Shown here: positions 1-1,460 of the stretch, piece after piece
Layout of the letters: each line of letters begins with the position of its first letter
How positions within the stretch are numbered: position 1 is the first letter of the stretch
NCBI GenBank assembly: GCA_000004985.1
Contig: GG739398.1
DNA: 1,514 nucleotides
Reading direction: 5' to 3' (one strand)
From: Naegleria gruberi
Lineage: Eukaryota
Made by a program: the position numbers and the translations under genes
Notes under the pieces: generated by a model
Seen by the model: only the letters and a program-made list of their open reading frames with translations
Database searches by the model: none
What the model was told of the DNA's origin: nothing

Positions 1-301
1 AAATAAATCGCAATACATTACCGAGACAATTAATTAAATCGGCCTTACTCATGGCAACTCCTGTATCAATGATGGTTAAAGTCTTGTTAACCTTATCAGG
101 GATGATACGAATACACAATTCCCTTTCAGTGTCCAAGACTGATGGTTCAGTCAAACTAATATGACGAAGCTTATCCAAAGCATCAGAAGCATTAGAAATC
201 AATTCTCTCAAGAAGATTTCCTTATTGCTATAAAATGTATTGATGATCAAACTCATCAATTGGTTGATTTCAGCTTGAAATTTAAATGTTTCGGTAGACA
301 T
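1..301 (-). CDS. HSP90: Hsp90-family molecular chaperone, N-terminal ATPase (GHKL/Bergerat) domain. 5' end of the gene: ATG at 301..299, about 100 codons in the window, continuing past window position 1
   Basis: Manual reverse-strand translation from the ATG at 301 gives [100 protein letters not shown]. Residues 4-45 are essentially identical to the canonical Hsp90 N-terminus ([41 protein letters not shown]) recalled from yeast, human and plant Hsp90. The start context caagaATGTCT (A at -3, Ser TCT second codon) is typical of a highly expressed yeast gene. No in-frame stop occurs between 301 and 2. Confidence 0.9.
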
Positions 302-321: not shown

Positions 322-340
322 CGAAGTAAAATTCGGAAGT
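320..340. promoter_or_regulatory. Direct repeat TTCGRAAGT (ttcgaagt at 320-327, ttcggaagt at 332-340), 20-40 bp upstream of the Hsp90 ATG in the core promoter / 5' UTR
   Basis: Seen in sequence. The second copy contains one of the CGGAA pentamers. The TTC-GAA spacing of 0-1 nt is not a canonical HSE spacing. Confidence 0.25.
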
Positions 341-426
341 GCTTTTTAACAAAAACCTTCTGAACGGAATGTTTTATTGTAAACGGAACGTTCCGTGCAT
401 ACAAAAAATACACAAGACATTCCGTT
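331..426. promoter_or_regulatory. Cluster of five CGGAA/TTCCG pentamers: CGGAA at 334-338, 365-369 and 384-388, and TTCCG at 391-395 and 421-425. It includes AACGGAATG half-sites at 363-371 (plus-strand orientation) and 418-426 (inverted), flanking the central palindrome. Centre-to-centre spacings are about 20, 5 and 30 bp
   Basis: The pentamers were counted directly. About 0.2 occurrences would be expected by chance in 170 bp of roughly 33% GC DNA on both strands, against 5 observed. The spacings in multiples of about 10 bp put the sites on one face of the helix. Confidence 0.4.
383..396. promoter_or_regulatory. Perfect 14-bp palindrome ACGGAACGTTCCGT. Its core GGAAcgTTCC is two inverted nGAAn units (GAAnnTTC), so it is a candidate heat-shock element about 88 bp upstream of the Hsp90 ATG. 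Alternatively it is a CGG-N6-CCG zinc-cluster (Gal4-class) site
   Basis: I verified the self-complementarity of 383-396 by hand. Established knowledge: HSF binds alternating nGAAn/nTTCn pentamers, Hsp90 genes are HSF targets, and Zn2Cys6 factors bind CGG-Nx-CCG. Confidence 0.45.
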
Positions 427-470
427 TAATGTTCAACCAATTCACTGTGAATGTCTGACCAATAAATTAT
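400..470 (-). terminator. Probable 3'-end formation region of the Ser-rich gene (AT-rich, with TTTTTTGTAT and ATAATTTATT on the coding strand); not precisely mappable
   Basis: Position immediately 3' of the TAA at 473..471. Yeast polyadenylation signals are degenerate UA-rich elements. Placement is inferential. Confidence 0.25.
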
Positions 471-1460
471 TTAATTGTTGGGATTGGTTTCAGAAGGATC
501 AGACTTCCTCTTAAATGATGGTAATTTGGGTCTATGTTGCTCAGTATTCTGTCCAGCACTAGTTGGTGGTTGTAAATTAGAAGAGCTATTGTTAGTGGAG
601 GAAGATGCACTTCTTTTCCTCTGGTCACCAACAGGGGGTGCTGCACTCAATGCTTTCTTCTTGTTGAATGAAGAACTTGTTGGGGGTAAATTAGAAGAGG
701 AAGGATTCTTTGTGGTTGTAACAGCAGAAGAGAAACCAATTGAATCAGCAGCAGTTTTGGAAGATGTATTTCTTAGTGAGGCATTAATTGGTGCTCTTTT
801 TGTTGATGAAGAACTTGCTAATACATTGTTGGATACAGTAGATGATGAAGAATTTGTTGATGCAGTATTGGATGATTTCTTCTTGGTTGATGAAGATGAT
901 TCATTTCTTAAATTATTCAAAGATGGTGGTTTCTCTTGAGGTATTCTTTGTGAAGAATTCTTTGAAGAAGAAACTCTTGATGAGTTGGATGAAGAATCAA
1001 TTGTCTTGTTGAGAGACTTGTAAGAGGATGCCAATTGATCATCCTCAGATTCATCTTGAATAACCTTACTCTTCCTTAATGGTAGTGGTAAAACGGTGGC
1101 AGTTTTCTTTTTGTTGCTTGATTCTTTAGACGATTTCTTTTGAGGTGGTACTGAGCTAGCACTGTTATCAGATTCATCTGAAGAATCATCATTTTCTATA
1201 ACTTTAGACTTGACAATATTTCTATTATTATTCTTTTTAACCTTTTTAGGTCTTGAAATCTCCTCATCAGATTCCTCTGGGACGTTTCCTAAAAGTAATG
1301 ATCTTTTTTCCTTTTCAAACCTAGTCTGTTTTTTCTTATTGGTTTTCTTCTCATGCTCATATCTTTCCATTCTAAAATCTTGATACACCTTTTCATAATT
1401 GGAGGATAATTTCTCTCGATTAGCATGTTTAACGAGGTGATCAATTATGGGCTTCCTCAT
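471..1460 (-). CDS. Complete 329-aa Ser/Lys/Asn-rich low-complexity protein. It has a charged, structured-looking N-terminus (MRKPIIDHLVKHANREKLSSNYEKVYQDFRMERYEHEKK), acidic Ser/Asp/Glu clusters (EESDEEIS, DDSSDESDNSASS, DESEDD) and basic clusters (RPKKVKKNNNR, KSSNKKK, FNKKKAL, SFKRKSD). Likely a nuclear or nucleolar phosphoprotein; no confident homolog recognised
   Basis: This is the longest ORF in the window. Its first ATG (1460..1458) lies about 30 nt downstream of an in-frame upstream TAA, and the TAA stop is at 473..471. Codon usage is yeast-like (TCT/TCA/AGT Ser, AAG/AAA Lys, AGA Arg). The non-repetitive N-terminal 60 aa argue against a random low-complexity ORF. The long plus-strand ORF opposite it is compositionally a mirror artefact. 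Confidence 0.7.
   Translation of the reverse strand: MRKPIIDHLVKHANREKLSSNYEKVYQDFRMERYEHEKKTNKKKQTRFEKEKRSLLLGNVPEESDEEISRPKKVKKNNNRNIVKSKVIENDDSSDESDNSASSVPPQKKSSKESSNKKKTATVLPLPLRKSKVIQDESEDDQLASSYKSLNKTIDSSSNSSRVSSSKNSSQRIPQEKPPSLNNLRNESSSSTKKKSSNTASTNSSSSTVSNNVLASSSSTKRAPINASLRNTSSKTAADSIGFSSAVTTTKNPSSSNLPPTSSSFNKKKALSAAPPVGDQRKRSASSSTNNSSSNLQPPTSAGQNTEQHRPKLPSFKRKSDPSETNPNN

Follow-up and report, generated by a model that had tools for sequence, protein, structure and literature searches.

Repeated single CGGAA units as predicted regulator sites in a compact Hsp90 promoter

Which protein reads a cluster of CGGAA/TTCCG pentamers packed into the short spacer upstream of an Hsp90 gene is the question raised by this locus. 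A sequence-only reading had offered three options, namely the heat-shock factor (HSF), a zinc-cluster factor, and a distinct regulator. The window, by which we mean the whole 1514-base stretch of DNA analyzed, is AT-rich (about 35% GC), and its codon choice, read off the sequence, is TTG/AGA/GGT/CCA. Both genes lie on the minus strand, in the order intron start, Hsp90 exon 1, spacer and Ser-rich ORF along the window. The sequence-only reading was silent on this orientation, and its description is the reverse complement relative to transcription. Hsp90 exon 1 occupies positions 22-301 (minus strand, ATG at 301-299) and comprises 93 full codons and, at its end, the first base of a codon for Gly. 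The intergenic spacer (302-470, 32% GC) contains the promoter/5′ leader of Hsp90. It probably also includes the 3′ end of the gene upstream, a Ser/Asn/Lys-rich orphan ORF of 329 codons (471-1460, minus strand) whose TAA stop codon borders the spacer. The spacer length of 169 bp and the distance of the farthest site, which ends 125 bp from the ATG, are as first described.

The downstream gene had been named as Hsp90, and this identity is confirmed, the translation of exon 1 (first 94 residues) matching Hsp90/HtpG proteins and PDB Hsp90 N-domains. The protein has unusual residues, such as DKLRH in place of DKIRY and INCLG in place of (V/I)NNLG. The search for relatives covered a protein collection, contig collections from metagenomes, genomes and viruses, and a set of 1.84 billion representative proteins, and found a single close relative, protein P0001 encoded on L001, a 1048-bp contig from ENA metagenome run ERR1078381. 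Hsp90 exon 1 of this relative shares 90% of its protein and 85% of its DNA positions with that of the window, with differences at 34% of third codon positions. Among the proteins listed, none of them longer than about 1.75 times the query, all other matches to the Hsp90 fragment stand at 81% or below, apart from P0222 (82% over part of the query). Full-length named Hsp90s fall outside this size range, and the list is therefore no guide to taxonomic placement. P0222 was set aside as a typical plant-like Hsp90 on a contig without promoter. Of the 80 related Hsp90 loci recovered from metagenomes, none exceeds 78%. A degenerate pattern encoding an 11-residue clade-specific Hsp90 peptide had no match in metagenome or viral contigs, and in genome contigs it matched only a bacterial HtpG. 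The fragment is 70-78% identical to Hsp90s from many eukaryotes and to giant-virus copies alike, its comparison with PDB entries gives no taxonomic resolution, and the neighboring ORF is an orphan. For the latter, no Pfam family was found, the exact-record look-up of its protein was empty, no homologue of the N-terminal half was found, and the full protein had zero matches among the 1.84 billion representatives.

The relative also defines the end of the first exon. Hsp90 homology stops at INCLG in both sequences, at the boundary G|GTAATG in the window. In L001, a 102-nt GT...AG insert (408-509) follows INCLG, after which the frame resumes with TIARSGTK; once the insert is removed, the product is colinear with Hsp90 genes that lack introns. 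Since the insert lies at the same residue and the spliced product is colinear, exon 1 of the window is assigned to 22-301, and a spliceosomal-type intron begins at position 21 (1-21, minus strand, GTAATGTATT...). The spacer had been discussed as a yeast stress promoter. The intron at the end of exon 1 (G|GTAAT...), the peptide INTFYSNKE, where ascomycete yeast Hsp90 has INTVYSNKE, and a neighboring ORF without homologue among the 1.84 billion representatives leave a yeast origin unsupported.

CGGAA occurs five times in the window, both strands counted, and all copies fall within 334-424 (91 bp), inside the spacer between the Ser-rich ORF and Hsp90 exon 1. Relative to the ATG, these are site A at -123 to -119 (420-424, minus strand; AAACGGAATGTC on the gene strand), site B at -94 to -90 (391-395, minus strand; GCACGGAACGT on the gene strand), site C at -87 to -83 (384-388, plus strand), site D at -68 to -64 (365-369, plus strand; GAACGGAATGTTT) and site E at -37 to -33 (334-338, plus strand; TTCGGAAGTGC). 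Two copies are thus forward and three reverse. Sites B and C abut head to head, as the distal and proximal halves of a perfect 14-bp palindrome, ACGGAACGTTCCGT (383-396), which is not extendable (A at 382, G at 397). This palindrome holds a two-unit heat-shock element (HSE) at 385-394 and a CGG-N6-CCG dyad at 384-395 (CGG AACGTT CCG). The positions and sequences first given for the palindrome, for AACGGAATG (363-371, with its reverse complement at 418-426) and for TTCGGAAGT (332-340) were correct.

The cluster is non-random and is no chance event, as the sequence-only reading had held. At least four copies in 95 bp were reached in none of 5000 dinucleotide-preserving shuffles of the window and in none of 5000 shuffles of the spacer alone; when any pentamer with at least three G/C was allowed, 4 of 500 shuffles contained five in 95 bp. 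The excess had been put at 25-fold, and while the excess itself is real, this figure is too low: with about 0.09-0.10 copies expected per 91 start positions under a mononucleotide model, it is about 50-fold. The DNA is CpG-depleted (observed/expected 0.44 in the window and 0.57 in L001), and the spacer carries 7 of the 20 CpGs of the window, six of them within CGGAA copies or at the palindrome center. The C preceding GGAA had been singled out as conserved, and it is a real constraint: GGAA/TTCC is preceded by a 5′ C in all eight occurrences in the window and L001 promoters, versus 0 of 28 elsewhere in both sequences. On the 3′ side, the same eight sites continue with TGT (3), CGT (2) or GTG (3), the window copies reading CGGAATG (twice), CGGAACG (twice) and CGGAAGT, so that an extended consensus, valid for both orientations, would be CGGAA plus TGT, CGT or GTG. 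No consistent helical phase emerges from the center-to-center distances, which are 29, 7, 19 and 31 bp for the window and 27 and 33 bp for L001. Flanking similarity of 12-16 nt is shared by sites A, C and D. The locus also has two repeats that carry CCAAT.

In the relative L001, the sequence before the ATG is limited to 127 bp. All three of its CGGAA/TTCCG copies lie within this region, of which they are the only CpGs, and they align with sites B, D and E with order and orientation kept and with spacing within 1-2 bp (B-D and D-E, 26 and 31 bp in the window versus 27 and 33 bp in L001). Site B is kept as CTCGGAAGTG (L001 23-27), with both flanks changed, and sites D and E are kept in the same orientation as CATTCCGT (L001 51-55) and CACTTCCG (L001 84-88), respectively. 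The cores at these three sites are identical at 15 of 15 positions though their immediate flanks have diverged, as seen in the window and L001 flank pairs GCACGGAACGT versus TCTCGGAAGTG, GAACGGAATG versus TGACGGAATG, and ATTCGGAAGTGC versus ATACGGAAGTGT. Conservation of site A is only partly assessable, the orthologous position being the start of the contig, where GAATTG alone is visible. Site C is absent, the aligned sequence being GAATTGC within CGGAAGTGAATTGC, and with it the palindrome: the second half-site is gone (CGGAAgtGAATTGC), and the two units are direct (GGAAG TGAAT), not inverted. In the pairwise alignment, 21 of 23 motif columns are identical versus 74 of 112 for the rest (one-sided Fisher p = 0.011), a footprint that relies on one close relative whose promoter is about 66-77% identical overall and ends 127 bp upstream. 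Its power is limited, as further blocks, TTTACAATAAA, TTTTGTTAAAA and AAAAAAATACAAC, are equally conserved.

Because a palindrome half was lost in L001 while single CGGAA copies were kept, the conserved unit, as judged from this alignment, is at least the single CGGAA word in either orientation, the palindromic pairing being specific to the species of the window. By the same comparison, the two-unit HSE and the CGG-N6-CCG dyad both lack conservation. The CGGAA copies are probably binding sites for a regulator whose specificity differs from that of the usual HSF, and among the three options first offered, the distinct regulator is the best fit, given that single copies are retained and dyads are not. 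We give a probability of about one half to the reading in which the cluster consists of repeated predicted sites in a compact Hsp90 promoter, each read as a single CGGAA unit by one and the same regulator. The segment would be the working part of this promoter, with five copies from -123 to -33 and at least three in the relative, and the protein bound to these sites would act on Hsp90 rather than on the upstream gene, multiple occupancy driving or gating Hsp90 transcription. The palindrome would then be copies B and C happening to abut head to head, not a conserved functional unit. As a feature, this is of an ordinary kind, a cluster of repeated putative transcription-factor sites. No such density is seen in the controls, about 29 other eukaryotic upstream regions (a set that leaves out L030 and L038) and 80 giant-virus Hsp90 upstream regions, which carry at most two CGGAA copies each.

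Several observations weigh against a single regulator. The 3′ flanks are of differing types (TGT/CGT versus GTG), which could mean more than one reader, and the flank similarity of sites A, C and D could reflect local duplication rather than independent selection. Sites D and E lie so near the ATG (-66 and -35) that they may belong to the core promoter or 5′ leader, where an activator site would be unusual. Finally, the single relative and the three other equally conserved blocks limit the weight of the footprint on this point as well.

HSE control is the default expectation for such a gene, with a three-unit HSE at 8/9 or better in about 13 of the 29 other eukaryotic Hsp90 upstream regions. 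A typical HSE comprises at least three contiguous, alternately inverted nGAAn units (PMC8379338). For HSF, the core of the palindrome, gGAAcgTTCc, could serve as a minimal two-unit HSE, with the isolated GGAA units recruiting further trimers, making up a compact heat-inducible promoter. Indeed, the chaperone gene is preceded by a perfect head-to-head nGAAnnTTCn pair, GGAACGTTCC (385-394), the only perfect one in the window; as the sequence-only reading noted, there is no third in-phase unit. HSF DNA-binding domains do bind two-site HSEs, yet the head-to-head form is a weaker binder than the tail-to-tail form (PMC8379338). However, the whole window, including about 1.2 kb upstream of the ATG, holds no three-unit HSE scoring 8/9 or more and neither a gap-type nor a step-type arrangement. 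The region covered includes the coding sequence of the Ser-rich ORF, where canonical three-unit HSEs would have counted against the first reading of the cluster; at the same threshold, none was found there. In addition, the other copies lie 19 and 29 bp from the dyad, out of the 5-bp register, and the C, as well as the G before GAA, is invariant in all eight copies, for which HSF has no requirement. The 127-bp upstream region of L001 lacks the two-unit HSE while keeping its three single CGGAA copies, which goes against HSF as the reader. It is thus unlikely that HSF accounts for the cluster. HSF may touch the palindrome but does not explain the CGGAA motif; it might use the palindrome as a weak two-unit head-to-head HSE, selection having kept something else.

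It could also be that the copies have no function and arose by local direct or inverted duplication of a 13-20-nt segment, their apparent conservation coming from close kinship. The similarity of sites A, C and D, with a direct repeat of 16 nt (81% identity) and inverted arms of 13 and 21 nt, is what such a history would leave, and overall promoter identity is high enough for three of five pentamers to survive by chance. Nevertheless, site E and the L001 copies of B and E share the core alone, with a different flank (CGGAAGTG), the cores stayed identical while their flanks diverged, CpGs in this CpG-depleted DNA survive only inside the motif, and the cluster is placed exactly in the promoter. 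Duplication without function is therefore regarded as distinctly unlikely.

Another explanation places the inverted copies at the service of the upstream gene. An imperfect inverted repeat able to form a hairpin spans 380-428 (minus strand), the arm of site A pairing with that of site C. In the gene-strand RNA (428 to 380), it gives a 20-bp interrupted stem of -23.3 kcal/mol (z = -5.9, versus z = -3.8 for the whole spacer). This stem starts 43 nt past the stop codon of the upstream gene, with AAUAAA coming after it. The corresponding AATAAA (373-378, minus strand), in block TTTACAATAAA and identical in L001, may be the poly(A) signal of the upstream gene or else a TATA-like element. The conserved blocks outside CGGAA (TGTGT...TTGTAT, AATAAA, and a T-rich run then TTAAAA) resemble fungal-type 3′-end signals but could equally be TATA-like elements. 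It is plausible, from this layout, that the CGGAA sites lie within the 3′ UTR of the upstream gene, promoter and 3′ UTR sharing sequence. The inverted copies might then exist for the stem-loop, in 3′-end formation or as a block to read-through. The extreme version of this proposal is that the window comes from a giant virus: Mimiviridae polyadenylate at hairpin-forming palindromes, the so-called hairpin rule (PMC4402537). A likeness to giant viruses is seen in the compact tandem arrangement of the genes, in the orphan ORF and in the AT-rich composition, and Hsp90s from giant-virus MAGs, at 54-78% identity, are as close as the best cellular matches.

The stem, however, follows from the inverted orientation of sites A and C and from the similarity that extends into their flanks, and since inverted copies of any one motif will pair, a low folding energy is expected. 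The best-conserved copies, D and E, are not part of the hairpin, and the stem arm at site C is lost in L001, with neither a compensating change nor an equivalent hairpin in the available part. A comparison with Rfam gave no family match (one sub-threshold chance match falls outside the spacer). As for a viral origin, the spliceosomal-type intron of Hsp90 is one that Mimiviridae, being cytoplasmic, would be unable to splice. Upstream of giant-virus Hsp90 genes, GC content is 12-25% at nearly all loci, versus 32% for the spacer; many of these regions carry an ATTTAAA-type motif, and none has more than two CGGAA copies. A stem-loop as the reason for the inverted copies is thus improbable.

The last rival takes the palindrome as a CGG-N6-CCG inverted repeat, with Ppr1/UaY-type spacing, for a Zn2Cys6 homodimer, the other copies being accessory half-sites; it is highly improbable, for although CGG AACGTT CCG is an exact inverted CGG pair and inverted CGG repeats at fixed spacing are the classic zinc-cluster site (PMC10954478), the second CGG is gone in L001 while single copies stay, so that the dyad is unlikely as a functional unit and the zinc-cluster option first offered finds no support in this form. 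The dimer reading also needs a fungal host. To our knowledge, Zn2Cys6 proteins are essentially fungal, and Ppr1/UaY-type regulators control nucleotide metabolism, not chaperones.

If one regulator does read single CGGAA units, the most natural candidate would be a monomer-type Zn2Cys6 protein should the host be a fungus, and otherwise some GGAA-reading factor. The Rgt1-type consensus is CGGANNA, and Rgt1-controlled promoters carry several copies of the site, in either orientation, within about 90 bp. By analogy, an Rgt1-type multi-monomer mode fits the architecture seen here, with several single CGG sites in either orientation in one promoter. The Rgt1 motif has been written as CGGAA (bioRxiv 10.1101/385047), AmyR binds CGGAAATTTAA (PMC5468973), and zinc-cluster proteins recognize CGG triplets paired in an inverted, direct or everted arrangement, monomer binding also being reported (PMC10954478). 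The likeness to known Zn2Cys6 sites (Ppr1/UaY, Rgt1, AmyR) thus lies in the CGG of every copy and in the one CGG-N6-CCG pair. Unlike these sites, the dyad is not conserved and position 7 is not A (0 of 5 window sites match CGGANNA, with G or T there), and the known examples regulate sugar or nucleotide metabolism.

Among GGAA-reading factors, ETS proteins bind (C/G)CGGAAGTG sites (e.g., GABP), and CGGAAGTG is found at window site E and at the L001 copies of B and E. The ETS domain is, as far as we know, confined to metazoan proteins, and CGGAATG and CGGAACG, i.e., four of the five window copies, are poor ETS sites; no feature of the locus points to a metazoan host. Testing for an CCGGAAGT-type ETS flank found CGGAAGTG at one of five window sites and two of three L001 sites, CCGG nowhere, and T or C after GGAA at the others. 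The CGGAAGTG copies lie near the probable start site, as do ETS sites in human promoters, where the ETS core marks TATA-less proximal promoters (PMC3464117). TEA/ATTS sites (GGAATG / CATTCY; TEAD, Tec1, AbaA) compare similarly: GGAATGT is present at sites A and D and at L001 site D, whereas B, C and E lack GAATG, and the 5′ C lies outside the TEA/ATTS consensus. Other candidates were rejected: for the Myb-type YAACGG, some window sites have the AAC prefix but B, E and the L001 sites do not; no STRE (AGGGG) occurs in the spacer; and a budding-yeast centromere with CDEIII-like TTCCGAA would lack CDEI and a CDEII of more than 90% AT.

A precedent for chaperone genes under a repeated non-HSE motif and a non-HSF factor comes from Plasmodium, in which AP2-HS is associated with a tandem G-box upstream of hsp70-1 and hsp90 (bioRxiv 10.1101/2021.03.15.435375). 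The motif differs, being a G-box and not CGGAA, and there is no sign of apicomplexan origin here. A replacement of this kind would parallel the AP2-HS/G-box system: the host lineage might have swapped HSF/HSE control of Hsp90 for a reader of CGGAA units, with its sites interleaved with the 3′-end signals of the upstream gene, an analogy that we offer tentatively and consider doubtful. The host lineage is barely present in public protein and metagenome collections, and the scope is at present one promoter and one relative. If the reading of one regulator on single CGGAA units is true, a chaperone gene would be controlled through a repeated motif other than the canonical HSE, and promoter and terminator signals would be packed into a very short spacer. 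It would also provide a new data point on how the near-universal HSF/HSE circuit may be supplemented or replaced.

The spacer between the Hsp90 start codon and the stop codon of the upstream Ser-rich ORF also carries a 14-nt direct repeat, AATGTTCAACCAAT / AATGTCTGACCAAT, whose copies lie 22 bp apart on the plus strand (window 428-441 and 450-463). This repeat places two CCAAT boxes (438-442 and 459-463, plus strand; ATTGG when read on the gene strand) at approximately -137 and -158 relative to the Hsp90 ATG, with the upstream stop codon at most 35 bp from both. These boxes are possible sites for an NF-Y/HAP-type factor. L001, a metagenome contig carrying a close Hsp90 relative, ends short of the orthologous region.

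Many Hsp90 genes on giant-virus MAG contigs (L084-L163) share an (A/T)ATTTAAA(A) motif, such as TAATTTAAAAGCAAAATG, located 20-45 nt upstream of the ATG in regions of 12-25% GC, where it presumably serves as a promoter element of the virus. The window sequence TTGTTAAAAAGCAC, at about -55, bears only a loose resemblance to it. The 102-nt intron of L001 (L001 408-509, and within it 476-490) contains an imperfect direct duplication in two copies, cattatttcttga..ttaacaaattattatta, and a sequence resembling the heat-shock element at 8 of 9 positions, TTTCTTGAAATTTAT; given the AT-rich sequence, this match may be due to chance. Only 21 nt of the window intron are present, too short for comparison with that of L001.

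The Ser/Asn/Lys-rich ORF (471-1460, minus strand) matches no Pfam family, and a search of 1.84 billion protein representatives returned no homologue. Its 329 codons, free of stops in DNA of 35% GC, argue for a real gene, and it is therefore a lineage-specific orphan. The 154-codon ORF antisense to it (475-939, plus strand) is most likely not a gene but a by-product of low-complexity codon composition.

None of the homologous proteins listed reached about 1.75 times the length of its query (at most 165 aa for a 94-aa query and 296 aa for a 169-aa query), and full-length, named proteins are therefore absent from the lists that these gene-fragment searches gave. The window Hsp90 shares the unusual DKLRH and INCLG with L001. 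Additionally, it encodes DTGVAMSK at 56-79 (minus strand), where L001 and other Hsp90s have D(S/T)G(I/L)GMTK; the DxGxG nucleotide-binding box thus carries Ala in place of Gly. This substitution may be the sign of a divergent paralogue.
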